Part shown: positions 32,001 through 51,143 of the stretch, piece after piece
Layout of the letters: each line of letters begins with the position of its first letter
Numbering within the stretch: the first letter of the stretch is position 1
NCBI GenBank assembly: GCA_044892525.1
Contig: CM097888.1
Location: 15,500,001 to 15,564,000 of the forward strand
Origin: Schmidtea polychroa
Taxonomy: Eukaryota
Length of the DNA stretch: 64,000 nt
Direction: 5' to 3'
Position numbers and translations under genes: made by a program
Notes under the pieces: model-generated
The model's input: only the letters and a program-made list of their open reading frames with translations
The model's database searches: none
What the model was told of the DNA's origin: nothing

Positions 32001-32110
32001 TATTGAAAAAGTACAAAGTACTTGTGTGTTAGAAAAGAATATAAATCGATTAATTGGAATATAGCTGTGGTAACTAAAAGATGAGAGCTAGAAATTCTGT
32101 ATAGCGTTTA

Positions 32111-33006
32111 AGTAGAGAGAAGTGTGCTCCATGACTCATCGTTTTTTGTCATTTTTTTGCACTACCCCCCCCCGATGACTCAGTGCAAAACAAAGACATA
32201 TGACTCATCGATGACTCATCCATTGCAACCGTGGTAACTGGATCAAGGTCATATGACTCACCCATAGCAACCATGGTAACTAGATCAAGGTCGCATGACT
32301 CATCCATAGCAACGGTGGTCCCCATGGCAACTAGGCCAAGGTCATTCTATTTTTAGCAACAAGGTCACATGACGTCATCGATGACTCATCAAGGTCATTC
32401 TATTTTTAGTAAATAGGTCAAGGTCATTCTATTTTTAGTAACAAGGTCACATGACTCATCATTTTTAAACAAAGACGATGACTCATCATTAAAGTACATA
32501 TGATTCATCACCGTTGATCCTGCCCGATGACTCATCATTTTTAAACAAAGAAGATGACTCATCAAGGTCATTCTATTTTTATTAACAAGGTCATATGACT
32601 CGTCATTTTTGGAACAAAGCCAACTGACTCATTATTAAAGTATGTATGACTCATCATTTTTTAAACAAAGACATTTAATCAAATATTTAAACAATGACAT
32701 GTAAACAAATATTTAAATAAATACATTTAAACAAATATTTAAACAAAGACATTTAATCAAATATTTAAACAAAGACATTTAATCAAATATTTAAGTACAT
32801 TTAAACAAAGACATATAGACAAAGACTCATCGATGACTCATAGTTTAGATAGGGGGTTTCTTTTTTTTTGCATACTCCCCCCCCCCTTGTATGACTCATC
32901 GATGACTTTTTTGAACAAAGACCAATCATTTATTTTTAAAACAAAGACTCATCACACGACTCTAATTTTTAGAACAGACTTCTTTTTTGGAAAACCAAAA
33001 TTTATT
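32111..33006 (+). repeat. Left TIR of Polinton (at least ~900 bp, runs into N gap)
   Basis: Reverse complement of 47541-48338; internal tandem subrepeats (ATGACTCATC, AAGGTCATTCTATTTTTAG, ATTTAAACAAAGAC). Confidence 0.93.
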
Positions 33007-33218
33007 NNNNNNNNNNNNNNNNNNNNNNNNNNNNNNNNNNNNNNNNNNNNNNNNNNNNNNNNNNNNNNNNNNNNNNNNNNNNNNNNNNNNNNNNNNNNNN
33101 NNNNNNNNNNNNNNNNNNNNNNNNNNNNNNNNNNNATAATAATAATTAACTTAATAATATTTATGCCAATAATAATAATAATATATCAGACAAAAGATAA
33201 TTTAAATCAATACATTTA

Positions 33219-33719
33219 TTAAACAATGAAATAATTTAAAATTAACAATGGCCATTTAAATATTGATGTACTCATATTTGCTGCCATCTTGTTTGAAATT
33301 GGTAACGTTGAATTGGTTTTCAAATTTTCTATCGATTCTTTTATTGTTCGAATTTCGAATATTATTAAATCAATCTTTCTTAACAAATGATCATGTTTCT
33401 TATCAATAATTTTCATATTCTTTTTATTTTCAACAATTGAGTTATTGAAAACCTCAATATGATCAATCAATTTAAATTTTATATTTTGTATATATTCAAA
33501 AGATAGGTCATAGCTGTTTTCTAAATTCTCCAATCTTTGGGATATTCTTTTTCCTGGATGCTTTGCCCATTTTGGTTTGTCAAGAATATAGAAAATATCC
33601 ATCAACTTGGCGGTATTTGGACAAATACATATTGATTTATTAAAAGGCTCCACCGTTATTGTTGTATTGTGTGAGCACACATTCCTTATAATAATTAGCA
33701 ATAGAAATATAGTTTTCAT
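33219..33719 (-). CDS. Polinton accessory protein: signal peptide, N-glycosylation sequons, coiled coil, hydrophobic C-terminus
   Basis: 166 aa: MKTIFLLLIIIRNVCS leader, sequons NTT, NKS, NNS, NST, NMS; heptad-like central region; tail IFKWPLLILNYFIV. Confidence 0.7.
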   Translation of the reverse strand: MKTIFLLLIIIRNVCSHNTTITVEPFNKSICICPNTAKLMDIFYILDKPKWAKHPGKRISQRLENLENSYDLSFEYIQNIKFKLIDHIEVFNNSIVENKKNMKIIDKKHDHLLRKIDLIIFEIRTIKESIENLKTNSTLPISNKMAANMSTSIFKWPLLILNYFIV

Positions 33720-33761
33720 GTTGTATCAAATCTATTATGTTTTACATTTATAGTCTATCAA

Positions 33762-33801
33762 CCAATCAGAATCATATTACACACACACAGTAGTATAAAT
33801 A
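33762..33801 (+). promoter_or_regulatory. CCAAT box and TATA box upstream of the Bcl-2-like gene
   Basis: AACCAATCAGA at 33760-33770 and TATAAATA at 33794-33801, ATG at 33831. A minus-strand TATAAAT at ~33746-33752 could serve the divergent gene. Confidence 0.55.
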
Positions 33802-33830
33802 AGACAGTATATTAAAAATTATTGTAAAAA

Positions 33831-34348
33831 ATGTCTAAATTTATTGAAAACGTCCTAAATGGACTAGTCACAGCGAATATAGTCGACAGCCTCAATTTCC
33901 TGGTCAATCGGACCGAACAAATTATTGAAGGCAACCATATCGACTACCAGAGCATGCTTGATATGGATTGTCTTGAATCAAAGAAGAATTATTTTAACAA
34001 TATATTTCAATGTCTCTGCGATGAAGACATGCAATGGACAAGAATTATTGTAGGGTTCACCTACATGAAGATAATCATTGCGAAAAGCCAACATGACTCA
34101 GAACATTATTATCAGTGGTCTTTAGAAGTAAATTTATTATTATTATTTTTATTATTATTATTTTTTAGATAATCAAATCCAAGTTTAGTCCATGGATAGA
34201 AGATAATGGCGGATGGGATACACTCAATCAACTCGCCCGCAATGCTAAAGAAACTGATGAAATCAAAAGAAAAATGAAAAACTATATTAAACTCACAACA
34301 GGAGTTGTTTTATTGTATATGTTATTTAAATATTTAAATAAATATTAA
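33831..34348 (+). CDS. Bcl-2 family protein (viral Bcl-2-like), 2 exons, 158 aa
   Basis: Exons 33831-34127 and 34169-34348 with a 41-nt GT-AG intron. BH1-like MQWTRIIVGFTY, BH2 PWIEDNGGWD, C-terminal membrane anchor LTTGVVLLYMLFKYL. Confidence 0.85.
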
Positions 34349-34390
34349 TTTTTGTTATTTTTCTTATGTATAAAAAACAAATTTTAAAAT

Positions 34391-34819
34391 TTAACATTTA
34401 TTAACACATTCACAATAGTCATCTCCACATTTCATAATATTATCAACTACATGATCTATACAATCGTTAGGTTGTTCTTGATTGTTTTCTCCATCAATTT
34501 CTTGGATGTTTTCTCCATCAATTTCTTGGATGTTTTCACTAATTTCTTGGGTGTTTTCACTAATTTCTTGGGTGTTTTCTCCATCATTTTCTCCATCAAT
34601 TTCTACATCAGTTTCTTGACTCACTTCACTTTCATCAAATCCTGAATCTTGACTTTCAACTATCCAGCCTATATTTAATGCATTTGCAACAGATAATATA
34701 TCCTCAACATTTACACCAGCTATTTCTGCCAATTTTTCCAACAAAAAGTTGATTACAATTTCTAAATAATAAATAATTCGGTAAGTTATTAATCAAAATT
34801 AACCTTTTTCTGTAGTCAT
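34391..34819 (-). CDS. Polinton accessory acidic repeat protein, 2 exons
   Basis: Exon 34819-34804 (MTTEK), 42-nt GT-AG intron, exon 34761-34391 in frame. Repeats of QEI(S/D)(G)EN and a Cys-rich tail CGDDYCECVNKC. Confidence 0.65.
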
Positions 34820-34971
34820 TTTTATTAACACTTTTAAACTATAATGTAAGTTTGTTTATAGAATGTCTTTGTTAAATTTGCATTACTGTTGCATTAATAT
34901 TAATAAAATAAATAAGATTAAATACATTAAATACATTTATTAAAATACATTATATACATTTATTAAATACA

Positions 34972-35379
34972 TTAAAATAGTTGTGAAAGCCTAGCAGACA
35001 TAATTTTCCAAATTGGAGAATACACATCATTATTATCGACTTTATATCCTTGGATTGCAATTGTTATATACCAATTTTCGTTTTCTTTGAAACTGATTTC
35101 ATCAAAGGCATCATAAAATTTTGCATATCGGTTGTTGAACCATGCATTTTGATTACATGATAGATTTGAATTCAACCGTTTGAAAACTTCATCTATGGTT
35201 TTAACATCTACCATTGAAAGCGTGCCGGATAAGAATTGAAATTGAGTTGGAATTAACTTGACCGGTGCAACCAATTTCATATTGATTTCTTCTTTTAAAA
35301 AATACATTTTGTAGTTGTGGAACATTTGAACAGGCTGAACAAGTTCATCTTTCGGTTTTTCAGTGCATTTCTTGACCAT
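34972..35379 (-). CDS. Polinton accessory protein, possible OB-fold ssDNA-binding protein
   Basis: 135-aa intact ORF with its own TATAAAA (35414-35420) and CCAAT (35442). Beta-rich C-terminus YITIAIQGYKVDNNDVYSPIWKI; function is inference only. Confidence 0.65.
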   Translation of the reverse strand: MVKKCTEKPKDELVQPVQMFHNYKMYFLKEEINMKLVAPVKLIPTQFQFLSGTLSMVDVKTIDEVFKRLNSNLSCNQNAWFNNRYAKFYDAFDEISFKENENWYITIAIQGYKVDNNDVYSPIWKIMSARLSQLF

Positions 35380-35675
35380 CGTGAATTATGATTAAAATGA
35401 AATGGTACAGGGTTTTTATACCTTCAAAATAAATGGAACAACCAATCAGATTAAAGTTTAAATTACATCAATGTTGCACATGCTTTGCATTTGTATTGCA
35501 CATGTCTTTGTTTAAATTGCATCAATGTTGCACATGGTTTGCATTAATGTGTCTTTGTTTAAATTGCATTAATGTTGCACATGTATGATTATTATTATTA
35601 TTATTTTTGGTCATCAATATATAAAAAAAAAAAACAAAATACATAAAAAATATTTATTAATTTAAATCAACAATC

Positions 35676-35873
35676 CTAGAATAAGTTTCTAAGTGTTTTT
35701 ACTAAATTCCATTCTACATATCGCTGATAACGACCAACTGCATCCAATGATACATGGATATTCCATTTCTTTCTGCATTCTGTCGATCTACTCATTGGAA
35801 TTGATTTAATATATCGAACATCCAGATTCTTGTATACCAAATCTGGTATAATCTCTGGATCCCTGTCCTTCAT
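35676..35873 (-). CDS. Small hypothetical Polinton ORF, possibly disrupted
   Basis: 65-aa ORF between two accessory genes on the same strand. An upstream 41-nt intron-like stretch (35920-35960) does not give a clean in-frame model. Confidence 0.35.
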   Translation of the reverse strand: MKDRDPEIIPDLVYKNLDVRYIKSIPMSRSTECRKKWNIHVSLDAVGRYQRYVEWNLVKTLRNLF

Positions 35874-36057
35874 TCAATTGAGGATAGAAATACTTGAGGC
35901 AATCATTTGGAATATTCATCTATAAAATATATAAAAAATATATATAAATTAAAAATTTACCGTAATTATCGATCTCAGACATTGATTTTGCCGCGCTAGT
36001 ATTAATGACATCTAAACAGTTAATATTATTATTATTAACCAATTAGAAATTAACCAA

Positions 36058-36495
36058 TTAGAAATCGACCAATGAATTTAACTCATTCCGAACATTGTTA
36101 ACAAATTCCCTATAGTCTAAATTTCTCAACCCAAGCATGACAACCTTTCCACTTGAAAACACATTGACACATATAGGGTTATATTTTAATAGTCTTAATG
36201 CCGGAAACAATTCCGGTTCAAACATACAATCACATTTTCTCGATATTTTGTATAAATTGATAGTATGTCCCATATCCATAGTAACGGTAATTGATTGAAT
36301 TTTAATATTATTGATTCGATATTGTAATTTATTAATATCCAATGGTTCCTTACATCCCATAATTCTGCATTTGCCAGTCTTGAAAAATATTATCGGATAT
36401 TTCCCGCTTCTATCGACAATTTGCTGTGGTTTTCCTGGTGGGAACCTCATTTTTGAAACATCAAAATTTCCTCGATAATTTATATTTGCAAGCAT
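36058..36495 (-). CDS. TATA-binding protein (TBP)-like protein encoded by the Polinton
   Basis: 145 aa, two half-repeats: IIFFKTGKCRIMGCK (cf. LIFxSGKMVCTGAK) and FEPELFPAL...VNVFSSGKVVMLG (cf. YEPELFPGL...LLIFVSGKVVLTG). Confidence 0.85.
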   Translation of the reverse strand: MLANINYRGNFDVSKMRFPPGKPQQIVDRSGKYPIIFFKTGKCRIMGCKEPLDINKLQYRINNIKIQSITVTMDMGHTINLYKISRKCDCMFEPELFPALRLLKYNPICVNVFSSGKVVMLGLRNLDYREFVNNVRNELNSLVDF

Positions 36496-36603
36496 AATTA
36501 AATCATTTATGAAATTTTACTCTTTATATACAACTTTAGCAAGAGTTCATTAAAATCATCTAATATAAACAATAACTAGATATTTTAAAATTAAAAATAA
36601 AAA

Positions 36604-37227
36604 ATGCAATTAAGAAATGATGCAGTATACCAAATCGTTGGCCCGAGTGGTAGCGGGAAAACATTGTTTGTTTGTAAATTATTACAATCAAAATTATTCA
36701 AGTCAAAATTTAATAAAATTTATTGGCATAGGGGAGCTGATGATGAAAGCGGAATGACACAAGATCAGTTTTGTAAAATCAAAATGACAATCATAAAAGG
36801 GTTCGATAAAAACTGGTCATCTAGATTACGACAGGGTGATGTGATTATTATTGATGATTTATATCAAGAAGCAAATAAAGAAAAGGATTTTAATAATTTG
36901 TTTACAAAAATTAGTAGACATAAAGGTGTCACTGTAATTTTTATCACTCAAAATCTTTTTCATCAAGGTGGATCTCACCGAACTCGTAATTTGAATGTTC
37001 AATATTTAGTTGTTTTCAAAAATCCGAGAGATGCTACAGTGATTGACTTTCTTGCAAGGCAAGCATATCCAAATAATCGAAATTTCTTAATGAATGCATT
37101 TGTCGATGCAACAAAATCCCCACATGGATATATTTTTCTAGATTTTACACAACAGTGTCCTGATGAATTACGAGTAAGAACAGATATATTTAACAAGGAA
37201 GGAGCTATAGTATATAAACAAAGATAA
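36604..37227 (+). CDS. Genome packaging ATPase (A32/FtsK-like)
   Basis: Walker A GPSGSGKT, Walker B IIIDD, RHKGVTVIFITQN and N..YLVVFKNPRD motifs. Confidence 0.95.
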   Translation: MQLRNDAVYQIVGPSGSGKTLFVCKLLQSKLFKSKFNKIYWHRGADDESGMTQDQFCKIKMTIIKGFDKNWSSRLRQGDVIIIDDLYQEANKEKDFNNLFTKISRHKGVTVIFITQNLFHQGGSHRTRNLNVQYLVVFKNPRDATVIDFLARQAYPNNRNFLMNAFVDATKSPHGYIFLDFTQQCPDELRVRTDIFNKEGAIVYKQR

Positions 37228-37248
37228 AACCAAAATAAATTATCAATC

Positions 37249-37740
37249 ATGTTACTAAAAACTCGTGTAAAGACAAAACCTACAAGAAGGAAACCTGCAA
37301 AAGTGGTTAAGATTCCACCAAAAACTAGTTTCACACCATCGAAAAAATTGCTTATTGATAATATTCCGCCGAGTAATCGTATTCCACCGAGTAATCATAT
37401 TCCGCCGAGTAATTCTCATCGTAGTTTTCCGTTTTTCATTGCATTACTTAAGGCTCCCAGTATGAGAAGAATGAATATTTTACAGTCTTTTCCAAATTAT
37501 GTTATTGATGATTTACTTGCTATTTTAATTAAAGTTGTTAAAGGTAAATTCCGTATAAGTACATCAAATAAAAAGATTTTGAACAGACACAAGAAACCAC
37601 TATTATCATTAGTAAATACTAAAAATAAAAAACGTATGCGTAAAATCATATATAAACAACAAGGAGGCTTCATTGCAGCCTTGATACCAATAGCATTATC
37701 TTTATTGGGAGGGGCAGGTTTATTAAAATCATCATCATAA
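37249..37740 (+). CDS. Basic virion/core precursor protein with C-terminal QxGG cleavage site and amphipathic tail
   Basis: Lys/Arg-rich 163 aa ending KQQGGFIAALIPIALSLLGGAGLL, a pattern typical of small Polinton virion proteins. Confidence 0.75.
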   Translation: MLLKTRVKTKPTRRKPAKVVKIPPKTSFTPSKKLLIDNIPPSNRIPPSNHIPPSNSHRSFPFFIALLKAPSMRRMNILQSFPNYVIDDLLAILIKVVKGKFRISTSNKKILNRHKKPLLSLVNTKNKKRMRKIIYKQQGGFIAALIPIALSLLGGAGLLKSSS

Positions 37741-37795
37741 ACAATGGGTCAATCATTACCAAATCTTAATTTGAATTTTAAATCCTCCTGTTGTA

Positions 37796-38183
37796 ATGGA
37801 GAAGATTTGGACGAACCCAGAAGACGAAGCCGGTTTCGGTGGAGTGGCAAAATTAAAGAAAAGAGTTCCGAATTCGAAAAAAGAAACCCAGAAGTGGTTA
37901 TCAAATCAACTAGCGTACAGTTTGAACAAACCAATGCAGAAAAGATTTCCAACAAGAGCGTATAAAACATATGGAATAAATGATTTGTGGCAAATGGATT
38001 TGATGGAGATGATACCCTATTCAAAAATTAACAAGGGGTATAAATATATTTTAACGTGTATTAATGTATACAGCAGGTTTGCACGAGCAATACCAGTCAA
38101 GTCAAAATCTGCAGATGAAATGTCCAAAGCTATTAATATTTTATTTAAAAATGGACATCCTAATAATTTACAAACGGATTTAG

Positions 38184-38221
<38 letters not shown>

Positions 38222-38865
38222 ATATTATTATTATTTTAGGTAAAGAATTCTACAACAGTAAAGTTAAGCAAATCCTCGATAAACTGAAAATAAATCACTA
38301 CTCGGTACATTCTCAATACAAAGCTGCTCATGTTGAAAGATTTAACAGAACCTTGAGAGATAGATTAAAGAAATTGTTCGTGTATCAAGGTAATAAAAAA
38401 TGGGTATTGGTTTTACCAAAAATTATAACCAGTTATAATAATTCATCACATCGAGGACTTAATGGATTGAGACCGGTTGATATCACATCAAAAACATTCT
38501 ATTCTAAAAAATCTGAAAAAATTACAAAACCGAAATATAAAGTTGGTGACCATGTTAGAATTAGTAAAATTAGTGCATCACCATTTATTAAAAATTTCGA
38601 TACAAATTGGAGTGATGAAGTCTTTGTAATTTCGAAAATAAATACTAGCCAGAACCCTGTGATGTATGTCATCAGAGATTCTGAAAATAACATTGTACAA
38701 GGGAAATTTTATGAGCAAGAATTACAAGTCATTCCTCCCCCAAAAGTATTTAGAATTCAAAAAATATTGAAAACTAAAATGGTGGGTAAGGATAAACAAT
38801 ACTATGTCAAATGGCATGGATATAAAAACCCATCATGGATATCGTCTCGAGACCTCGTAAAATGA
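37796..38865 (+). CDS. Retroviral-type (rve) integrase with C-terminal chromo-like domain, 2 exons
   Basis: Exons 37796-38183 and 38240-38865 with a 56-nt GT-AG (ATT)n intron. Splicing restores DLWQMDL...LQTDLGKEFY...VERFNRTL (D-D-E); C-terminus YYVKWHGY...SWI. Confidence 0.95.
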
Positions 38866-39881
38866 ATTTTTACATTATTTTGCCAAGTAATAGTTGTCCG
38901 AATATACATCCAGAAAACACTGCCAGTAAATTTATGGTCAATCTCCAAAATCCGATTTATTTAAATGGTAATTGGGAAGTTGCTCTCCTTGACTTTACAT
39001 TTGTGTACAATCTCTTTCCAATTTATAGTAAAGCTAAAATTGAATATAAAAAGAAAGAGACGCAAAGAAATATCTCTTTTGTCATTGATAATGTAGAAGA
39101 TCGAATTGATATTGGTCCTTCCGATTCAATTGTCAAAATGTATATTGATCGTCAATATTTAATAGTTGAATGTAAATATCATCCCTTTACTATAAAATTT
39201 GATAGTTTAGCAATGGCAAAACGATTGGAATTAACAAGTCAGAGTAATAGAAATCATACTAATATATTCCAAGTACTACGGCCGAGATTTACCAAAGTAG
39301 CAGCGCGATATGAGACAATTTCAATGAAAGTTGAGTTTGAGGGTGAAACTGAAAATACATATACGTTTAATGAGAATTTATACATTTCTAAATTGGAGGA
39401 ATTACAATCATATTTAATTCAGAATTGTGGATCAATATTTAAATCATTGGAATTAGTAGACAATACTTTGTTCAAATTCAGTTTGAATACTGATATTACT
39501 GAAATTACTTTTGATAAAAATCTAATAAAAACATTAGGATTATCAAAAGGAACATATATTCAAGATGGAAAATTAAATGTAGGTATGAATAAACCGAAAA
39601 TAATTAAACTTCATCATCAAATGTTTCTCTATACTAATATTATTGAACCCATAATTGTTGGTGATTCTTTGGTTCCTCTATTGAAATCTATTTGGGTTGA
39701 GAAACATGAACAAGATGATGTTGTACAAATCAATGTAGAAAATCCCATGTATTTGCCTGTTTCAACATCCTGTATAAACAATATAGAAATAAATATAAGA
39801 GATGATTCTGGTCAATTAATCGAATTTGCAAAAGATTCAAAAACTCATTTGACACTACATTTTCGTAAAGTAGATGGCTAA
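38862..39881 (+). CDS. Minor capsid protein (penton, single jelly-roll)
   Basis: MNFYIILPSNS...F.VNL.NPIYLNGNWEVALLDF and MFLYTNIIEPIIVGDSLVPLLK...YLPV...INNIEINIRDDSG...LHFRK. Confidence 0.9.
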   Translation: MNFYIILPSNSCPNIHPENTASKFMVNLQNPIYLNGNWEVALLDFTFVYNLFPIYSKAKIEYKKKETQRNISFVIDNVEDRIDIGPSDSIVKMYIDRQYLIVECKYHPFTIKFDSLAMAKRLELTSQSNRNHTNIFQVLRPRFTKVAARYETISMKVEFEGETENTYTFNENLYISKLEELQSYLIQNCGSIFKSLELVDNTLFKFSLNTDITEITFDKNLIKTLGLSKGTYIQDGKLNVGMNKPKIIKLHHQMFLYTNIIEPIIVGDSLVPLLKSIWVEKHEQDDVVQINVENPMYLPVSTSCINNIEINIRDDSGQLIEFAKDSKTHLTLHFRKVDG

Positions 39882-40260
39882 TTCTGATATTATTAGTATG
39901 TATAGTGGTAGCCAAAGTGGTGGCGAATTACCATATTTTGTTGGTAAACAGTACGGAAGTGGGTGGTTGAGAACAATTGGTAGATTTGCGTTACCAATTC
40001 TTAAACGTATTGGTAATTTCGGTATGAAAACTGCAAAAGATGTAATTATGAATGACAAGAAAATATTACCATCGTTGAAATCAAATGCAATTGCTGAAAT
40101 AAGTAAAGTAATACCTGGTATGTTTAAAACTGAACCAGCACTGGTACCAGTAAAACGTAAATTTGAAAGTGAAATTAAAACAAGTATGGGAACTAAACGC
40201 AAGAGAGGGAGGCATATAAACAAACGAATGAAAGGACACGGAACCATATTTGAAGAATGA
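39874..40260 (+). CDS. Small conserved Polinton core/virion protein
   Basis: QSGG and QYGSGWLRTIGRFALPILKRIG motif; basic C-terminus; lies between the penton and major capsid genes. Confidence 0.8.
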   Translation: MANSDIISMYSGSQSGGELPYFVGKQYGSGWLRTIGRFALPILKRIGNFGMKTAKDVIMNDKKILPSLKSNAIAEISKVIPGMFKTEPALVPVKRKFESEIKTSMGTKRKRGRHINKRMKGHGTIFEE

Positions 40261-41483
40261 TTTGCGGTAAATCTGAATTATGTCTATTTGATCGACCATC
40301 GCCTCAGGCGGTTATCGAATATGGAGCATTTGAAGATGTATTTCCAATGAATTCTATTACCGATAGTAGAAATGATGTGGAATTTTACATTAATGGTTCT
40401 CAAACAGAATATTTAGATTTGAACGATACTTTGTTGTATGTTCAAATAAAAGTTGTAGATAAAGACAATAAAGCATTAGCTGCAGATGATACAACTGAAC
40501 CTAATAATTTCTTGTTTCATACTCTCTTTAAAGATGTTATTCTTGGATTTAATAACATTAAAATTGAGGGTGGAAACAATACATATGCTCACAAGGCAAT
40601 TATCGAAACTATTTTAAATTATAATAATGATACTAAAGATACTTGTCTAACTCCAATGGGATATGGTGTATCTGATGATCGAAAAAAGTGGATTAAAGGC
40701 TCAAAAACTTTCAACATGTGTTCATCTCTACAATTGGATTTTATGGATCAACCCAAATATTTACTACCAGGTGTTAATGTACATATGAGATTGAAAAGAT
40801 CTGATTCTGCATTGTCATTATCAACTGGAGTTGCAGGTGCAGCACCTAAATTAATATTACTCGATGCCAAATTAATGGTTCGAAGAGTTCGATGTGAATC
40901 GTCTGTATTAGCGGGACATCAAATTGGATTAAATACCAAACATGCAATTTATCCGATAAAAACAAAAGAAATTGTATCATTTGCAATTGCTAAAGGAGCA
41001 TCATCTTTTTACAAGGAGCAAATATTTGGAGATCGAAGAATGCCTAATTTTATCCTTGTAACTTTTCAAAGTGAAGCTCAATATAACGGATCTTATGATA
41101 CATCTTCATCAAAATTCAAACACTTTAGTGTAACTTCTCTTTCATTATCGAAAAATACTGATTATCGAGAAACTTATACTCAAGATTTTGATAATGATAA
41201 TTATTGTACTTCATATATGCAAAGTCTTGTCAGAAATTTAGGATATTTGGATAAAAATCTTAATTGTGGTATAAGTCTGGAAGAATTCAAAACATTCTAT
41301 CCATTTTTCACATTTGTTCTGGCTCCAGATTTTGATTTAAATCAAAGTCAATTACCTCAAAGTGGCAATTTGAGATTGGATATTAAGTTCGGTAAAGCAA
41401 CTACTGAACCAGTCCATGTAATAATCTATGGGGTTTTTGAAAATGAAATCCAAATTACTGCAAATCGAACTGTACTAGTATAA
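40257..41483 (+). CDS. Major capsid protein (double jelly-roll)
   Basis: 408 aa; SELCLFD.P..Q, EF.I.GS..EYLDLNDTLLYV, NNFLFHTLFKDV, Y..KA.IET.LNY, LQLDFMDQPKYLLPGV, LRLDIKF. Confidence 0.93.
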   Translation: MICGKSELCLFDRPSPQAVIEYGAFEDVFPMNSITDSRNDVEFYINGSQTEYLDLNDTLLYVQIKVVDKDNKALAADDTTEPNNFLFHTLFKDVILGFNNIKIEGGNNTYAHKAIIETILNYNNDTKDTCLTPMGYGVSDDRKKWIKGSKTFNMCSSLQLDFMDQPKYLLPGVNVHMRLKRSDSALSLSTGVAGAAPKLILLDAKLMVRRVRCESSVLAGHQIGLNTKHAIYPIKTKEIVSFAIAKGASSFYKEQIFGDRRMPNFILVTFQSEAQYNGSYDTSSSKFKHFSVTSLSLSKNTDYRETYTQDFDNDNYCTSYMQSLVRNLGYLDKNLNCGISLEEFKTFYPFFTFVLAPDFDLNQSQLPQSGNLRLDIKFGKATTEPVHVIIYGVFENEIQITANRTVLV

Positions 41484-41513
41484 ATGAAGAAATTTAAAAG
41501 ATTAAAGTTTTTT

Positions 41514-41898
41514 ATGGAGTAAGATTTTTATTTTATAATTTAACTTATTGATTAGTTCTATTCAGGTGTCTCGAATTGGTACTCAATTATTGGGAAACGA
41601 ATTTCTTGGAGTTTATCCACTGGATAAAATTCCATATTTGAGAAATAATCAAGCCATAATCGTCAATACTCATACATCTAGTTTAGGAGGTGAACATTGG
41701 ATTGCTGTATATGTGAAACCAAACCGAGTATATGCATTCGATCCCTTTGGATATTATTACCCAAATTTATTAATTAGTAAATTGCAAACTATTGGTAAAC
41801 CTATTGTATATAATCGAACTCGGTATCAAAATCCATTTTCAATTACTTGTGGCCAACATTGCCTTGCATGGTTGTTATCAATGTATAATTTTGTTTAA
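41514..41898 (+). CDS. Adenain-like cysteine protease, 2 exons
   Basis: Catalytic H (GEHWIA), D (FDPFG) and Q/C (YQ...CGQHC). A 37-nt GT-AG intron (41519-41555) joins ATG GA to T TCT ATT CAG, giving an MDSIQV start. Confidence 0.9.
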
Positions 41899-41920
41899 TA
41901 AATGTATTAAATGTCACAAG

Positions 41921-41971
<51 letters not shown>

Positions 41972-41989
41972 ATTATTAATTAATTTTAT

Positions 41990-42200
41990 TATTCATATCA
42001 ACAAATTTCATGCACTTGTATTGCATGTCTTTATGTGAGTAACAAAGACATTATTTGTTACTATGTGAGTCATCGATGACTCATTCTTTTTTAAACAAAG
42101 ACATGAATATGTGTGCGTTAATTTTTTCTATCCTATCTGCATTTTGATTGGATAAACGTTACATATATAATCTATGTTTTTGTAATTCTTTTTCATTTAT
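41990..42200 (+). promoter_or_regulatory. Putative promoter/enhancer of the polymerase unit
   Basis: TGAGTCA and TGACTCA, AACAAAGACAT twice, ATTGG at ~42147 and TATATAA at ~42164, upstream of ATG 42206; same motif set as the TIRs. Confidence 0.5.
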
Positions 42201-42205
42201 TCAAA

Positions 42206-43060
42206 ATGCAAAATATTTCAAATGAAATCAAGGAAATGATTCGAAGAAATCGTATGGGTAATTTTTTTTTTAATGTTTTTATTTTTATTTATATTTTAGT
42301 CTACATTAATGAAAATAATGTTTCGGGAACTTATAATTTTTCAGCAAGTAATGGAATTGAAAATAATGTTTCCGGAAATTATGGTAAATTTAATTTTTAA
42401 ATTATTATTATTATTATGATTTTTTAGTAAATAATGCTGTACACAATCTCGCGTGCAAGAAACCTAAATGTAGGTTTTTTAAAATTTTAAAATTAATATG
42501 CTTTAAATTATTATGATTTTTAAATTAATTTACTTTAAATTATTATGATTTTTTAAATTAATATGAAGTCAATTTTGTTATAAAGAAAATGTATGAAGTC
42601 AATTTTGTTATGAAACAAATAATGAAATTAATTTTTATAAAGAAAATGAATATGTTTTTATTTAATTAAAATAAATTTAAATATAATACACTTATGAGCA
42701 AGGGAGGGACAGAATATTTTGTCGTATAAACTCAGATTATATAGTAATAATAAATAATAATAATTTTGATAATAATAATAATAATAATTTTGATAATAAT
42801 ACTATTTTACTTATTTTATAGGTTATAAATATCCAACCTTTTGTAACAGTGCTACACATCATGACTGTGACGATATTATGGAAAAATATTATGGTCATGA
42901 ATATAAAAGTGTAACATACTTGTTATGTCCTACATGCCAAACTCTTGAAACATCGACATATACCGAATTTTATGATAAACATCGTAATCATTTAACCCAA
43001 TATATGCCTTCTAAAAAATCAGTTTTCAAAATTGCGTATCAAAAATATATCATCAACTAA
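42206..43060 (+). CDS. Spliced zinc-finger ORF upstream of pPolB, probably its N-terminal exons
   Basis: Exons 42206-42257, 42300-42383, 42428-42469 and 42822 onward, all GT-AG with compatible phases; encodes CPTC...HRNH. Confidence 0.6.
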
Positions 43061-46000
43061 TAATAGGAACACCGAAAACTTACAAAATCGACAATTAATG
43101 GAAACATCAACAAAAATCAATAATAGGACCACCAACAAAAGTATGATTAATGCCATGTTGATACAAAATCGACAATTAATGGAAACAGTCAATAGATTAA
43201 TAGGAATAATAGGTAATAAAAGACATTTAGAAATTCCCACAGAAATTCCCACAAAAAAGATGAAAGAAATAATAGTCATTAGTGAAGACGACGATGATGT
43301 TGTAAGTAATGAAGTTGTAAATAGTGAAGTTGTAAATAGTGAAGTTATAAATAGTGAAGTTATAAATAGTGAATTTGAAAATAGTGAATTTGAAAATAGT
43401 GAATTTGAAAATAGTGATGTTGTACCCCAAGTAGGTAGTGGTATAGTCGACGTAGTTTCCGACCTGAATAGTTCCCATGTAATAGTTAAGTTGGATATAT
43501 CTTCCTTGAATTGTAAAATTCTTTCTGTTCCTGACGTTCTCATAGAAAAATTGTTAGAAATTGTAAATAAAATGAAATCAGTAAAAATTCAATTTTGTAT
43601 TAAAGTAGAGTTTGAGAAAAATGATGAATTTCAGTCTTTCATAATCTCAAACTCTGCTCGTGTATGGAGCGACACATTTATTGATGATGGTATCTCTCTT
43701 TTAAATGAAAAAATTAGTAAAATAAATGAAAAGGGAAGTAATTGGACCATTAACAAAATAGAATACATTAGTTTTATTGTGACAAAATATTCAAAGATTA
43801 GTAGGTTGAGTGGTCGTAAATATATTGAAACCCCGAAAACATTAATCAGGAAAAAATGTATAATAAATGTAAATAATGATGACGAATTTTGTTTCCTTTA
43901 CTCGGTTTTGGCTCTTATAAAATATGATAGTACTCCTGATGAATTGCGTCATCTGCCTAGTTCTTATAACCTTTCAGATCTGATATATAACCCGGCAGAT
44001 ATGCCAATGAAATTATCAAATATCTCAAAATTTGAACGACAAAACCCAGGTTATTCAATTAATGTTTTAAGTTATGACGAAACTGGGTTAATTTCGGGTC
44101 CCATCATGAAACATCCTTTTATAGATATAATTTATCGCAGTAAAATAGTAGGAGGTACTTGTCTAAATTTGTTATTATTACAGAATCGGAAAACCTACCA
44201 TTACGTCGCTATATCTGATTTAAACATCTTTCTTAATTGCCGAAATTCATCAATAAGTTCTGTTCGTATTTACTGTAAGTGGTGTCCTAGATGTCTGAAT
44301 GGATTCAGATTTGAAGATAGTTTTATTAAACATCAAGGTCTTTGTGAACGAAACCAATTAGGAACCACAATGTACACACTACCAAAAGATCCATTATTAG
44401 AATTCACAGACTATAGTAAAATGATTACTCCTCCTTTTGTTATTTATGCCGATTTTGAGGCAATCCTTCCTAAAGATTCTAAATATTATCAGAAACATTT
44501 ACCCATTTCGGCTGGACTTTTATGTATAAATAATAATACAGGCGCAAAATTTTATAAATCATTCATAGGCCTTTCTTGTATAGACGAATTTTTAAAAGAA
44601 ATTAATGATATCGCTAAAAAGATTGTAACTCCCTATTATTATAAAAATAAAAATAAGAAAATGATATTCATAGAAAATGACCAAATTAATTTTAATAACA
44701 GCACAAACTGTCATTTGTGTAAAAAATTATTAGTTAAACCAGTCAGGGATCATGATCACTTTACCGGTCAATTCCTTGGTGCTGCTTGCAACACTTGTAA
44801 TCTTTCCAGGAAAATATACCACACACTACCTGTAGTCTTTCATAATATGAGAGGATATGATCTCCATCATATCCTCAAATTTGGCTTGGCTAAATATAAG
44901 TCCTGGCATATTTCTTGTATACCGGTGACAAGTGAAAATTTTTTATCTCTTTTTGTGCATATTGATTCCCTGACTGTGAAATTTATAGATTCTTGTCAGT
45001 TTGTAAATTCGTCTTTGAAAAATGCTGTCTCAACCCTTAACACATTACCTTTGACAGAATCTGAGTTTAGAGGGTCTATTATTAAGAGTAAAGGGATTTT
45101 CCCTTATGATGTAGCAACTTCCCTTGATGTATTAATTTCTACATTAGAATTGCCCCCTAAATGGAGTGATGTATCCGATGATGAATACAATAAAGCAAAA
45201 CTAATCTGGCAAGAGACATCATGTAATTCCCTTTTGGATTATATGATGGTCTATTTGAAATTAAATGTATTTCTGTTGGCTGACTTTTTTCAGCAATTCC
45301 GAGCTAAGAGTATTGCTCATAATAGGCTTGAGCCTTTGAATTTCCTAGGTATCCCCAGTCTTTCTTGGAGTTCTGCTTTGTTAAGTCTTGATAAACCGAT
45401 TGAGCTTCTCACCGACATGGAAATGTATAATTTCTTTGAAGGTGGGATTAGAGGTGGGATAACGTTTGTGAATAAACATTTTGTTAGTAGTGATGAAAAT
45501 ACAGAGTTGTTGTATATTGACATCAACAACCTGTATGGATGGGCTTTATCACAAAAGCTTCCCGACGGTGGTTTTGAATGGGTGACTGATGACATTGCTT
45601 TAGAGAGATTATTAATTGAGTGCACAACGGAAGATTTAAATCAACTTGATTATGGCTATACTATAGAAGTAGATTTAAAAATACCGAAATCTATCCATGA
45701 CAAACTAGATGATTTTCCGGTAGCTCCTGGTAAGATGTGCCCACCTTTTTCTAAAGTGGAGAAGTTGCTACTTACACACGATCCGAAAACACACTATGTT
45801 TTACATTGGCGACTTCTCCAAATCTTTCTTCAGTTAGGTGTTGTTGTTACCAAGGTACATAGGGCTATTAGGTATACACAAAGCACTGTCTTCAAGAAAT
45901 ACATAGATACCAACACACAACTACGAGCCGCATCCATAACACCGCTCGATAAAGACTATTACAAGTTGCTCAATAACAGTTTGTATGGAAAAACTGTTGA

Positions 46001-46784
46001 GAACTTGAAAAAACGTATTAACTTACGACTGTGCAATTCCGCACAAAAACTTATCACATATGCCTCAAAACCGGCATTTAAGAAATCTACTAGGATAGAC
46101 GATGATTTGATTTCGGTTTTGCTTATGAAAGAGTCTGTATGTTTAGATAGGCCCAGCTACATCGGGCAAACTGTACTTGATCTTTCTAAACTGAGAATGT
46201 ATCAGTTGCAGTATAATGAATTGCAAAAATATCGCGATGAGTTTAACTGTGAAATTAATATAGTAGCTAGTGATACAGACTCTTTCTTTTTGGAAATTAA
46301 AAATTGTAGTCTTGACATTCTCTTACCTGCCATGATTCGTGACTCCTTGCTTGACACATCTAATTATAACCCACAACATCCTTTATATAGTAGAGCACTA
46401 GATTCCGTCATTGGAAAATTCAAAGACGAGAATAAAGGATTGAGATATAAGGAGTGGGTGTTTCTTCGTCCCAAGTGTTACAGCTTATTAGGTGATAAAG
46501 AAACTCTTAAAGCAAAATCTGTCACGTTGAAAGATACTGGCTTAGATCACAATTCCTATCGTGATTGTTATTTTAACAATAAGGTTTACTCTGTGCCACA
46601 ATTCCGCATTGCATCCAAAAATCATCAATTGTACAGCATAAAAAACATTAAGAAGGCGCTGACAAATAGAGATGACAAGCGGTATTGGAAATCGAAAAAC
46701 AAGAGTTTGGCATATGGGCATTATCGGATAGGGGACACTTTTATATATGATGATGACGACAATTTTGACGGAGAAAATTACTGA
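43032..46784 (+). CDS. Protein-primed family B DNA polymerase with endonuclease VII-like insert
   Basis: 1250-aa ORF. Exonuclease YADFE, FHNMRGYD, KGIFPY; CHLC...RDHDHFTGQFLGAACNTCN; polymerase motifs YIDINNLYG, KLLNNSLYGK, SDTDS. Confidence 0.97.
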   Translation: MRIKNISSTNNRNTENLQNRQLMETSTKINNRTTNKSMINAMLIQNRQLMETVNRLIGIIGNKRHLEIPTEIPTKKMKEIIVISEDDDDVVSNEVVNSEVVNSEVINSEVINSEFENSEFENSEFENSDVVPQVGSGIVDVVSDLNSSHVIVKLDISSLNCKILSVPDVLIEKLLEIVNKMKSVKIQFCIKVEFEKNDEFQSFIISNSARVWSDTFIDDGISLLNEKISKINEKGSNWTINKIEYISFIVTKYSKISRLSGRKYIETPKTLIRKKCIINVNNDDEFCFLYSVLALIKYDSTPDELRHLPSSYNLSDLIYNPADMPMKLSNISKFERQNPGYSINVLSYDETGLISGPIMKHPFIDIIYRSKIVGGTCLNLLLLQNRKTYHYVAISDLNIFLNCRNSSISSVRIYCKWCPRCLNGFRFEDSFIKHQGLCERNQLGTTMYTLPKDPLLEFTDYSKMITPPFVIYADFEAILPKDSKYYQKHLPISAGLLCINNNTGAKFYKSFIGLSCIDEFLKEINDIAKKIVTPYYYKNKNKKMIFIENDQINFNNSTNCHLCKKLLVKPVRDHDHFTGQFLGAACNTCNLSRKIYHTLPVVFHNMRGYDLHHILKFGLAKYKSWHISCIPVTSENFLSLFVHIDSLTVKFIDSCQFVNSSLKNAVSTLNTLPLTESEFRGSIIKSKGIFPYDVATSLDVLISTLELPPKWSDVSDDEYNKAKLIWQETSCNSLLDYMMVYLKLNVFLLADFFQQFRAKSIAHNRLEPLNFLGIPSLSWSSALLSLDKPIELLTDMEMYNFFEGGIRGGITFVNKHFVSSDENTELLYIDINNLYGWALSQKLPDGGFEWVTDDIALERLLIECTTEDLNQLDYGYTIEVDLKIPKSIHDKLDDFPVAPGKMCPPFSKVEKLLLTHDPKTHYVLHWRLLQIFLQLGVVVTKVHRAIRYTQSTVFKKYIDTNTQLRAASITPLDKDYYKLLNNSLYGKTVENLKKRINLRLCNSAQKLITYASKPAFKKSTRIDDDLISVLLMKESVCLDRPSYIGQTVLDLSKLRMYQLQYNELQKYRDEFNCEINIVASDTDSFFLEIKNCSLDILLPAMIRDSLLDTSNYNPQHPLYSRALDSVIGKFKDENKGLRYKEWVFLRPKCYSLLGDKETLKAKSVTLKDTGLDHNSYRDCYFNNKVYSVPQFRIASKNHQLYSIKNIKKALTNRDDKRYWKSKNKSLAYGHYRIGDTFIYDDDDNFDGENY
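43304..43420 (+). repeat. 15-bp coding tandem repeat (AATAGTGAAGTTGTA; NSEVV/NSEFE) in pPolB N-terminal linker
   Basis: About 7-8 copies visible. Confidence 0.85.
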
Positions 46785-47540
46785 TCATTTCGGTAATAAT
46801 AATAATTATTATTATAATTATTATTTTTTATTATTAATAGTTGTCAATGAAGCCAAGATTGTAAGAAACAATCAATGCAACAGACATTTGTAAAAATGAC
46901 AATGTAAAATTGTAAATTTGTAATTTAAATATATTTTGTTGATTNNNNNNNNNNNNNNNNNNNNNNNNNNNNNNNNNNNNNNNNNNNNNNNNNNNNNNNN
47001 NNNNNNNNNNNNNNNNNNNNNNNNNNNNNNNNNNNNNNNNNNNNNNNNNNNNNNNNNNNNNNNNNNNNNNNNNNNNNNNNNNNNNNNNNNNNNNNNTGCA
47101 CTTGTATTGCATGTCTTTATGTGAGTAGAAATTACTCAGTTAGTAACAATGACTCATCGATGAGTCATATTCAGAGAACAAAGCATCGATAATATCCAAT
47201 TCTGATTGGTTAGATGTTATCGATACTTTGTACATCTTTTCAAATGAGGTAATTATTATTTTTTTATGATTTAAATTTTTTTTTATAATGAAATTTTTTT
47301 ATGATTAATTTTTATTTTTTTTTTTATGAAACCAGTTTTTATGAAAACAAATTATATGATTTATGAAATAAATTTTATGAAAACAAACTTTTTNNNNNNN
47401 NNNNNNNNNNNNNNNNNNNNNNNNNNNNNNNNNNNNNNNNNNNNNNNNNNNNNNNNNNNNNNNNNNNNNNNNNNNNNNNNNNNNNNNNNNNNNNNNNNNN
47501 NNNNNNNNNNNNNNNNNNNNNNNNNNNNNNNNNNNNNNNN

Positions 47541-48338
47541 CAATAAATTTTGGTTTACCAAAAAAGAAGTCTTCTAAAAATTAGAGTCGTGTGATGAGTC
47601 TTTCTTTTAAAAATAAATGATTGGTCTTTATTCAAAAAAGTCATCGATGAGTCATACAAGGGGGGGGGGAGTATGCAAAAAAAAAGAAACCCCCTATCTA
47701 AACTATGAGTCATCGATGAGTCTTTGTCTATATGTCTTTGTTTAAATGTACTTAAATATTTGATTAAATGTCTTTGTTTAAATATTTGTTTAAATGTATT
47801 TATTTAAATATTTGTTTAAATGTATTTATTTAAATTTTTGTTTAAATGTATTTATTTAAATATTTGTTTAAATGTATTTATTTAAATATTTGTTTAAATG
47901 TATTTATTTAAATATTAAATATGTCTTTGTTTAAAAAATGATGAGTCATACATACTTTAATAATGAGTCAGTTGGCTTTGTTCCAAAAATGATGAGTCAT
48001 ATGACCTTGTTACTAAAAAGAGAATGACCTTGACCTAGTTACTAAAAATAGAATGACCTTGATGAGTCATCGATGACGTCACGTGACATTGTTACTAAAA
48101 ATAGAATGACCTTGACCTAGTTACTAAAAATAGAATGACCTTGACCTAGTTACTAAAAATAGAATGACCTTGACCTAGTTACCACGGTTGCTATGGATGA
48201 GTCATATAACCTTGACCCAGTTACCGCTGTTGCTATGGATGAGTCATATGTCTTTGTTTTGCGCTGAGTCATCGGGGGGGGGGGTAGTGCAAAAAAATGA
48301 CAAAAAACGATGAGTCATGGAGCACACTTCTCTCTACT
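47541..48338 (-). repeat. Right TIR of Polinton
   Basis: Reverse complement of the left TIR, with different subrepeat copy numbers. Confidence 0.93.
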
Positions 48339-51143
48339 CGTTTACGTGGAAATAAAATAAATATTAAAAACACAGCTGTGATGGAAACGAAAGAATGTGA
48401 CTATAAATTGGAAAAACAGATCAATCGAAAAACTGGTAGAATTCAGAACGATATTTGAACCAGAGAAATTGTGTCAATTGAAGAAGCCAATCAATACCAT
48501 TCTTAGGTAAAAAGTTTCATTAGTGAAGGATAAATTATTATCCTTTTGTTGTGGTCAATTTAGTATTCCCTGGGTGCCCCAAAATCATTAACCAACTTAC
48601 TTATCTTTTCTCTTATGGTTTATTCAGCGATCGTTGTGCTACACAGGAACCAACAATTTCTTACAGGCTGCGACAAACGGCAAGGATAAATCCGTTTCTT
48701 GTATTTGCTTTTACATCACATTGTATAAATTATTTTGTAAAATTATAAATAAAAATTATTTAAAAACAGAAGTTGGTTTTTTCATTAAAATTATTAATTA
48801 CACGCAACCACACGAAATATTCATTATTGACCTTATTAACATTAATATTATATTTATTGGAGTTAATTGTGTTAAGATTAGTGACACCCATGGGCGCTTT
48901 TACTAATAGGCAAACTTAGGCAACTGCCTAGAGGCGCCAACCGAAAAAGAGCGCTTGCAATATAATTTTCTTTGTAATTTTTTTTCCATAATTTTTATAT
49001 ATTTATTGATAATTATAATTAAATTATGTAATTAAACAAGATAATACTATTAATATACATTAATATTATTTATAAGTAGTACTTTGTTTTTGTTTTACTG
49101 ACGGTTTTTACTGATGGGTTTTCAAATTAGTTGTATGTAAAATAAAACGATTATAGAAGTTAAAATTTTTAAAAATTTGAATTCAAGTTGAATTTGTTAT
49201 AACTTTATAGTACAGAATATTTTATATTGCTATTTGGTGATTTATATAAAATTTTCTCTAAGTTATAATTTTATGGTAAGCGAATTTTACATATTTTAAA
49301 TATTTTTTTACAGAGGTATTGTTTTAAAATTTAGGTAAAATAAATTAAATGGAAGGGCGTAAAAAATAGTGGTTATCAAAGTAGAAAATTAGCAAAAGAA
49401 AAACAAAGAAGTTCGATAAAATCATTGAAAAAACAACTAAAACTAGATGGATTTTTAATTTAAAAACCCGGAGCCGTAGCTCAAGAACAGGTAAGCAATT
49501 GTGTTTCAATTGTGGAAATACATAACGAAACTACCACAGATGTCTCATATCAATTCAAACATTTAATGATTTAGAAAAAAATAAACACCCTGACACAAAT
49601 AATTTAGAATAAAACACTGACACATCTGCTAATTGTTCAAGAATGGTAAATCTGTCCGAAAATCACACAAACATTCAAATAAACCTTGATCCTGTTACAT
49701 GGAAACGGTGTGATGACTCTACTATTACATATTTATCTAATAAAAATAATTCCATTAGTCAAAACATCCCTACAGATTTCTCGTCAACAAAGAAGGTTTA
49801 TACCGACAAAAGAGCAAGATATTTAAATGAATGTGTTTTTTTAGAAGAAAATTGCAAAATGGTGAATTTATACGTCAAAATTATCTAGTATATTCTCAAA
49901 GTAACAAATCAGTTTATTGTGTTCCTTGTCGATTGTTAGGTGGTGGAACAGCACTGGCAACAACAGGTTATTCTGATTGGAAAATGTAACAGAATGCTTA
50001 TCTCAGCACGAATAATAAAGCAGCTATTATTAGGAGACTTTGCGTCAAATGTGAATGAACTATTAAATTCAGAAACTCTAAAGGGAAAAAAATTATTAGA
50101 TTCAGGTACTCAAACGGGTTGTGTGTATTATACGAAAACTTGCTAGCCAAACATTGCCTTTAAGAGGAAAAACTCAAATAATTGGAAACATTAATAATGG
50201 CAATTTTTTAATGGCCGTGGAATTAGTTGCCGAATTTGACCCGTTTGTAGCCGCGCATATTGAAAAATATGGAAATCCAGGAAAAGGAGGTACATCATAT
50301 TTATCGTCAAAAGTTTTCGAAGAAATTGTGATATTGATGGCCGAAAAAGTAAAACAACAAATATTTAAGGAATTATGAGAAGCAAAATATTATTCAATTA
50401 GTGTTGACTACATTCCTGACATATCACATACTGATCAAGTTGCTTTTATTATTCGATATGTAAAAAATGAAGTCCCCGAGGAACATTTTTTGAGGTTTTT
50501 GGAAAATGTAGCATAAATATGGAGGGGAAAGAAATTATACAATTTTTAAATGAAAACAAAATTGAAATAAAAATTTGAGAGGGCAATCATATGATAACGC
50601 TAGACACATGCCTGGAATTTATTCAGGACTTCAAGCACGAATTAAGAAAATCAATGAATTAGCTCATTTTATACCTTGTACAGCACACTCAATGAACTTG
50701 GTTGGAAAATTTGCGGCAGATTGTTGCCGAGATGCAGCATCCTTTTACAATTTTTTTACAAGAATTATTTAATTTCTTTTCTTCTTCAACAAGTCATTGG
50801 TTAGTGTTAACTACTACTTTAAAAGGGCGAACCATAAAATTTCTTTCCGAAACAAAATGGTCTTGTCCAACGTTCCCTCTAAGCTGGGCAAACGGGCGGC
50901 CGCCCAGTTAAAAATTGACATTTGCCCACTCAGCATTTCTATCCGCCCACTAGAAATTATTGCAAACAATAATTTTTTTTATTTGTCACCATTTTCATTG
51001 CGTAAACGACCCCAGTTGAAAATTTCGTATAGATTTCCACACTAAATTTTTTTATTATTTACATATTACAAAAATAAAATGATAAAAAAAATTTTTTTTT
51101 GAAATTTTGCCCAATTTTTTTAAAATTTAATATACTTGCACAC

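Follow-up and report, generated by a model that had tools for sequence, protein, structure and literature searches.

A Polinton/Maverick element of 16.2 kb, with ends AGTAG...CTACT, occupies positions 32111-48338 of the window, that is, of the whole stretch of 64,000 nucleotides (nt) of Schmidtea polychroa DNA analysed here (assembly GCA_044892525.1, contig CM097888.1, positions 15,500,001 to 15,564,000; the host assembly is AT-rich and comprises 781 Mb, with four large contigs). It has the long terminal inverted repeats, the AG...CT ends and the 6-bp target-site duplication that define this class, and it belongs to a family that has recently spread, with more than 100 related copies in the genome. 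Its integrase, its protease, the 5' part of its polymerase, its Bcl-2-like gene and a gene for an acidic protein are interrupted by short GT..AG segments which, judging from sequence comparison, are inherited introns that the host spliceosome very probably removes constitutively. The ends of the element, the interrupted genes and the segments are as follows (window coordinates).

32105..32110 (+): 6-bp target-site duplication, second copy at 48339-48344
32111..33135: left terminal inverted repeat, part of it masked, partner at about 47413-48338
33831..34127 (+): Bcl-2-like exon 1 (PF00452 match weak, E 0.004, below the cut-off)
34128..34168 (+): Bcl-2 intron, 41 nt, phase 0
34169..34348 (+): Bcl-2 exon 2, encoding a hydrophobic tail
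34804..34819 (-): acidic-protein exon 1, carrying the ATG
34762..34803 (-): acidic-protein intron, 42 nt, phase 1
34391..34761 (-): acidic-protein exon 2
35920..35960 (-): intron-like GT..AG segment of 41 nt, 5% G+C, followed by small open reading frames
37796..38183 (+): integrase exon 1 (rve E 5e-7, just under the cut-off)
38184..38239 (+): integrase intron, GT(ATT)n..TTAG, 56 nt, phase 1, at an AG|GT site, splitting the Gly codon of QTDLG
38240..38865 (+): integrase exon 2, with a chromodomain
41514..41518 (+): protease exon 1, the start codon plus 2 nt
41519..41555 (+): protease intron, 37 nt, phase 2, immediately 3' of the 5-nt ATG exon
41556..41898 (+): exon 2 of an adenain-type protease (PF00770 above the cut-off)
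42206-42257, 42300-42383 and 42428-42469 (+): three polymerase leader exons
42258-42299 and 42384-42427 (+): polymerase leader introns, 42 and 44 nt, phase 1
42470..42821 (+): long polymerase intron, 352 nt, phase 1, predicted to split a Cys codon
42822..46784 (+): large polymerase exon, a Cys/His-rich domain followed by a putative family-B polymerase (weak Endonuclease_7 match)

The segments in the five named genes, seven in all, run from GT to AG and contain 4-17% G+C, compared with 33% in coding DNA. The lengths of the exons yield matching phases, and each exon can be translated on its own without an internal stop. The element's continuous reading frames, 6.5 kb in all, include not a single GT..AG segment of 30-60 nt with a G+C content of 15% or less. 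Defined ends, an AT-rich interior and compatible exon phases are properties of U2-type introns, as are two others documented below, namely ends that are kept while interior and length diverge, and relatives that are continuous at the site. Six of the seven segments measure 37-56 nt, and the three host introns of a TRAPP-family gene in the window, counted by eye, 44, 47 and 46 nt. A preliminary description of this DNA, made from the letters alone, had listed these seven, with the integrase and protease introns where they are placed above, and had matched them to host introns in size, all of which holds; the 35920-35960 segment was absent from it. No common sequence beyond AT-richness and ATT runs was seen by eye among the element's introns, no genome-wide search having been made, and similar introns at unrelated sites, the mark of an introner (an intron-generating transposon), are not what is found here.

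An eighth segment of that list, "possibly 31" nt long and situated near 43036-43066, is not an intron. It reflects a frameshift (near 43040-43050) that is private to the window copy and breaks its polymerase exon: none of the 23 sister copies in which the region could be located agrees with the window copy; 21 continue in frame into the polymerase, and the other two stop earlier. Since the sisters read through at this point, the three upstream introns belong to the polymerase gene.

Inheritance of the segments was assessed in sister copies. A genome search with integrase exon 1 gave at least 150 matches at 93% identity or more, and 40 copies were compared, consisting of the first 20 sister matches of one search and a further 20 selected manually, several of them because their open frames were long; frame counts in this second set are therefore biased towards multiples of three (3n). 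Copies in which a site was not located are truncated or too diverged for the anchors. GT..AG ends were found in 27 of 28 located sisters for the Bcl-2 intron (32-93 nt, all three frame classes), in 30 of 30 for the acidic-protein intron (41-48 nt), in 39 of 39 for the integrase intron (30-123 nt), in 23 of 24, 24 of 24 and 23 of 23 for the 42-, 44- and 352-nt polymerase introns, and in 23 of 23 for the 35920-35960 segment. The preliminary description had named sisters lacking the segments as the finding that would speak against introns; whichever intron is considered, none of the 23-39 located sisters lacks it. Every one of the 15 copies with both ends preserved, the window copy included, is flanked by its own 6-bp target-site duplication, which identifies them as independent insertions, and nine of these have a frame-shifting integrase segment. 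Pairwise ratios of nonsynonymous to synonymous substitution (dN/dS), calculated exon by exon on both sides of the introns, lie mostly between 0.09 and 0.43 (Bcl-2 exon 2, 0.26-0.43; integrase exon 1, 0.09-0.15, and exon 2, 0.11-0.38; protease exon 2, 0.10-0.23). The exons flanking the introns are under purifying selection. Shared positions, near-invariant ends, varying length and frame, and purifying selection together indicate that the segments have been inherited and are not damage suffered after insertion, and the earlier proposal that they behave as spliceosomal introns is borne out to this extent. The copies (L031-L110, L158-L197) are mosaic, with near-identical integrases beside polymerases that are only about 31-73% like that of the window, which suggests exchange of modules between families.

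The introns of the protease and the polymerase reach furthest back. The protease layout, ATG plus 2 nt followed by GTAAG..AG, recurs in 49 of 53 protease matches, with 17 distinct interiors of 36-47 nt; of the other four, two are partial and were skipped, one is decayed and one is intronless. Position and ends are kept down to 51% amino-acid identity, and the intron is present in four of the five metagenome contigs that reach the gene (L115, L121, L122, L123); it is absent from L134 (40%). The same four contigs encode a capsid protein, an ATPase and an intronless integrase alongside the protease intron. Proteases in the databases either start M-N-S-V-Q (P0125) or display read-through intron text at their N-terminus. 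In the polymerase, the acceptor of the large exon reads AG|G[TC] in 46 of 46 copies, representing 13 distinct contexts and 32-100% identity, and is never followed by GA or GG; uninterrupted relatives have a Cys at the position of the long intron, the residue expected from a codon split as T|GT or T|GC. Leader exons number three in one and four in the other of two diverged copies (L095 and L073); their sequence is unrelated, and all are phase 1 and stop-free. The protease intron and the acceptor of the long polymerase intron are old and common to distant lineages. Two other delimitations were discarded: a 47-nt protease intron gives the wrong frame, and a polymerase intron of 348 nt, which would use a donor further on and could be read from another ATG, disagrees with the T|GT donor of diverged copies and with the Cys of the relatives.

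Retention of the protease intron leads to a stop at codon 3 for all 17 distinct introns, a clean off state. This raises the question of a regulated switch, as supposed in the preliminary description, in which retention would keep protease, integrase and polymerase silent until the appropriate tissue or stage splices them, an idea that would add to constitutive splicing, not replace it. The distribution of introns, present in enzyme genes and absent from those for capsid and ATPase, goes in the same direction. However, any GTAAG donor in phase 2 produces this stop by itself, the interiors of the introns show no conservation, families with an intronless integrase coexist at similar copy number, and differential retention is shown by no RNA data. 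Such a switch is rather unlikely, and a regulatory role of the introns is possible but unsupported.

The integrase intron has a different history. All 120 integrase homologues examined read D-x-G-x-E-F, with one residue between G and EF and no insert, and the 32 metagenome integrase loci that reach the site, out of 37, are likewise continuous. Within the genome, pattern matches at the site comprise 136 of the intron type and 112 that are intronless, the intronless families being 71-84% identical in exon 1 (full or near-full alignments). Together with a capsid gene, an ATPase gene and a polymerase core that are intronless, these numbers run counter to the implication of the preliminary description that core genes are intron-rich in general. 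A tree computed from exon 2, with 54 distinct rows out of 72, places the rows with the intron together on one side of one branch (support 100/99); a decayed row on a long branch, L190, is labelled intronless by rule though GT-ATT follows its exon 1, and four other decayed copies of the intron type are outside the tree. The integrase intron is therefore a single recent gain, intronless sister families being present in this genome too, and in this gene the earlier suggestion of intron gain is upheld.

In the older integrase subfamily the segment is mostly 3n long and stop-free, and 64 of 72 rows (93-95% identity) are open over at least 337 amino acids. Among the youngest copies, those in which it breaks the frame prevail: of 41 copies with an identical exon 1, 32 have short open frames, and 19 of 30 segments measure 3n+2, both exons being open in 17 of these 19. 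It might therefore be argued that the segment is not spliced at all, the older copies translating a poly-Ile insert and the frame-shifted ones being integrase-dead passengers moved in trans. The open older rows agree with this, the intronless integrase families of the genome could provide the enzyme in trans, and family A is too young for decay to be visible. On the other hand, the insert would place about 8-40 Ile residues right after DLG, which aligns with the retroviral LQTDNG, where none of the 120 homologues has one; its length varies freely while GT and AG are fixed in all located sisters; the frame-breaking form dominates the youngest burst; and slippage of triplets would by itself already yield 3n lengths. 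Translation of the insert is, on balance, quite unlikely.

Returning to a spliced integrase segment, its junctions bear on how it arose. AG|GT stands at both ends, each preceded by TTTAG, and the corresponding sequence in uninterrupted relatives is GATTTAGGTAAAGA. This likeness at both ends recalls the tandem-duplication model of intron gain at AGGT sites (PMC3443670; for this and the other papers cited below, statements refer to the portions of the text available). Unlike in that model, the interior is an ATT microsatellite without a recognisable exon duplicate, and TTTAG is a common acceptor in this genome, so that its repetition may be due to chance. An open, 3n older subfamily and frame-breaking youngest copies would fit birth in frame and lengthening by slippage until the segment became spliceable; an intermediate was not found. 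I tentatively propose, as a possibility that is somewhat less than even, that this intron has been caught at birth: duplication of AG|GT would have created an in-frame, stop-free insert, ATT slippage would have brought it to a spliceable size, frame-breaking variants would then have spread, and the element would belong to a wider lineage of splicing-dependent polintoviruses, also present in environmental contigs and discarded as defective by surveys for which intact means intronless.

ATT repeats make up most of the integrase segment and of the Bcl-2 segment of family A, with differences between copies, which is what microsatellite expansions or insertions inactivating single copies after insertion would produce, but this explanation deserves almost no credence, being refuted by same-base positions across independently inserted copies, by the non-repetitive Bcl-2 intron of diverged copies, by protease and acidic-protein introns devoid of ATT tracts, and by the selection acting on the exons. 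Specifically, in copies about 77-81% identical a Bcl-2 intron of non-repetitive sequence sits at the identical base, which makes the ATT tract there secondary, and a distant Bcl-2 gene (L168, 23%) is continuous at the site. As to the alternative posed in the preliminary description between microsatellite origin and conserved position, positions are conserved, and an ATT origin fails for the Bcl-2 intron.

Under the favoured reading of inherited, spliced introns, nuclear transcription of the element by RNA polymerase II of the host, followed by splicing, would yield the protein products. Unspliced RNA would give a protease arrested at codon 3, a truncated Bcl-2 without its tail and an integrase frameshifted or interrupted by poly-Ile. 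The times of gain differ, early in the clade for the protease and long polymerase introns, once and recently for the integrase intron, and ATT slippage later alters intron length, a change that does the element no harm since splicing probably removes the segment.

Several observations weigh against this reading. Public contigs were aligned to positions 33700-41900 (runs X1-X3 are guessed to be RNA, X8 was not assigned a type, and the polymerase introns lie outside), with repeats masked at the Bcl-2, 35920 and integrase introns; no splice joint is listed at any intron in this interval, those listed coming from X8 only and 84 joints not being displayed. An X1 contig lies inside the acidic-protein intron, which points to unspliced molecules in a run whose RNA nature is a guess, and the two Bcl-2 relatives in the databases are unspliced read-throughs. 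One pair of acidic exons has a dN/dS of 1.07 (L081, poorly aligned), and several pairs are saturated. The predominance of stop-free 3n segments in the older integrase subfamily means that frame logic alone does not force splicing there, and some intron copies measure only 30-33 nt, possibly too short for splicing. An X2 contig matches 34508-34761 without difference, continues for 23 undisplayed letters and ends its match exactly at the acidic-protein acceptor, a weak hint of splicing, the joint itself not being displayed. Unaligned contig tails at the integrase intron fit the spliced and the unspliced form alike, and no spliced product of the Polinton family was found in the protein databases searched.

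The other genes of the element, and one neighbouring feature, are these.

36058..36495 (-): TBP-like gene, no intron seen (PF00352 E 3e-16)
36604..37227 (+): packaging ATPase, intronless (Pox_A32, PF04665, above the cut-off)
38862..39881 (+): intronless reading frame 5' of the capsid gene, candidate minor capsid protein from its position only (no match in Pfam)
40257..41483 (+): double jelly-roll major capsid protein, intronless (predicted model)
51591-53921 (-): two long reading frames with the look, by eye, of a DNA-transposon transposase, unrelated to the Polinton introns

The capsid model (predicted local distance difference test, pLDDT, 66) resembles the capsids of iridovirus, mavirus and Sputnik with E about 1e-11, and the uninterrupted integrase relative P0001 exceeds the rve cut-off and is aligned to retroviral integrases. 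YIDINNLYG, KLLNNSLYGK and SDTDS, which I take to be polymerase-type motifs, were read by eye as family-B motifs in the translation of the long polymerase frame, for which no polymerase match was found in Pfam, PDB sequences or phage records. The Cys/His-rich domain at 42822-43060 (+) has 35 database relatives, many of them short separate proteins, and no match in Pfam. The terminal repeats (32130-32960, 47560-48320) are dense in TGACTCA/TGAGTCA motifs, presumably AP-1-like. A short TBP-like protein (PF00352) is also present in the metagenome relatives L114, L123, L130 and L134. No relative was found in the collection of viral contigs (viral_contigs). The endonuclease VII-like domain of the large polymerase exon recalls pPolB2 with HNH (bioRxiv 10.1101/2023.08.22.554363).

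In overall design the element is like the Polintons of vertebrates and nematodes (adintoviruses, Eupolintoviridae), with terminal inverted repeats, a 6-bp target-site duplication, integrase, putative family-B polymerase, A32-type ATPase, adenain protease and double jelly-roll capsid. Host splicing of core transcripts is familiar from adenoviruses, a related virus lineage, where the E2B mRNAs for polymerase and terminal protein take the polymerase start codon from a small upstream exon; adenovirus introns belong to long, alternatively spliced units, in contrast to the short, AT-rich, host-sized introns of the element. That introns are conserved in core enzymes implies expression in the nucleus with splicing by the host, a point relevant to the life style of polintoviruses.

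Bcl-2 homologues have been reported in adintoviruses (PMC8502044), endogenous mavirus-like elements are described as free of introns (PMC8547959), polinton-like viruses (PLVs) contain group I introns (PMC12220804), and planarian polintons are silenced by PIWI-interacting RNAs, piRNAs (PMC8532177). Mavericks as a rule count as intronless elements. Intact vertebrate Mavericks are without introns, "intact" being defined by intronless reading frames (PMC8097293), and nematode Mavericks have intronless core genes and cargo genes with introns (bioRxiv 10.1101/2022.07.12.499685). Unlike the Polintons of these two studies, the element has three core genes with conserved introns. Nematode cargo, the wasp proteases, likewise places spliceosomal introns inside a Maverick (same preprint), but those intron-bearing genes are host-derived, whereas here the introns interrupt viral core genes with continuous relatives. 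In the literature searched, spliceosomal introns were not found described for any core gene of a Polinton, and nothing pertinent turned up in PMC6431247, PMC11296320 or bioRxiv 10.1101/2022.07.28.501842; Repbase records or supplements may already annotate such introns. By its criterion the large survey PMC8097293, which counted only intronless frames as intact and took Genewise "introns" as damage, would class elements of this kind as degraded, as the preliminary description anticipated for scans of open reading frames, and intron-bearing lineages may be undercounted. Intron-forming sequence in polinton-like elements is also known from the eupolintoviral introners of dinoflagellates (PMC12166617), which are mobile, mostly post-integration, and show signs of selection against genic insertion. 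Unlike these, the introns described here are mutually unrelated and have been inherited within a spreading family that retains them. For the integrase intron, a gain that can be dated, one genome contains intronless sisters as well as more than 100 copies of graded length, a gradation that would allow a mechanism of intron origin and the minimum intron size of the host to be tested with RNA reads. Set beside these systems, the element is a real, unusual variant of a known one, with intron-bearing core genes kept in a spreading family and one datable intron gain.

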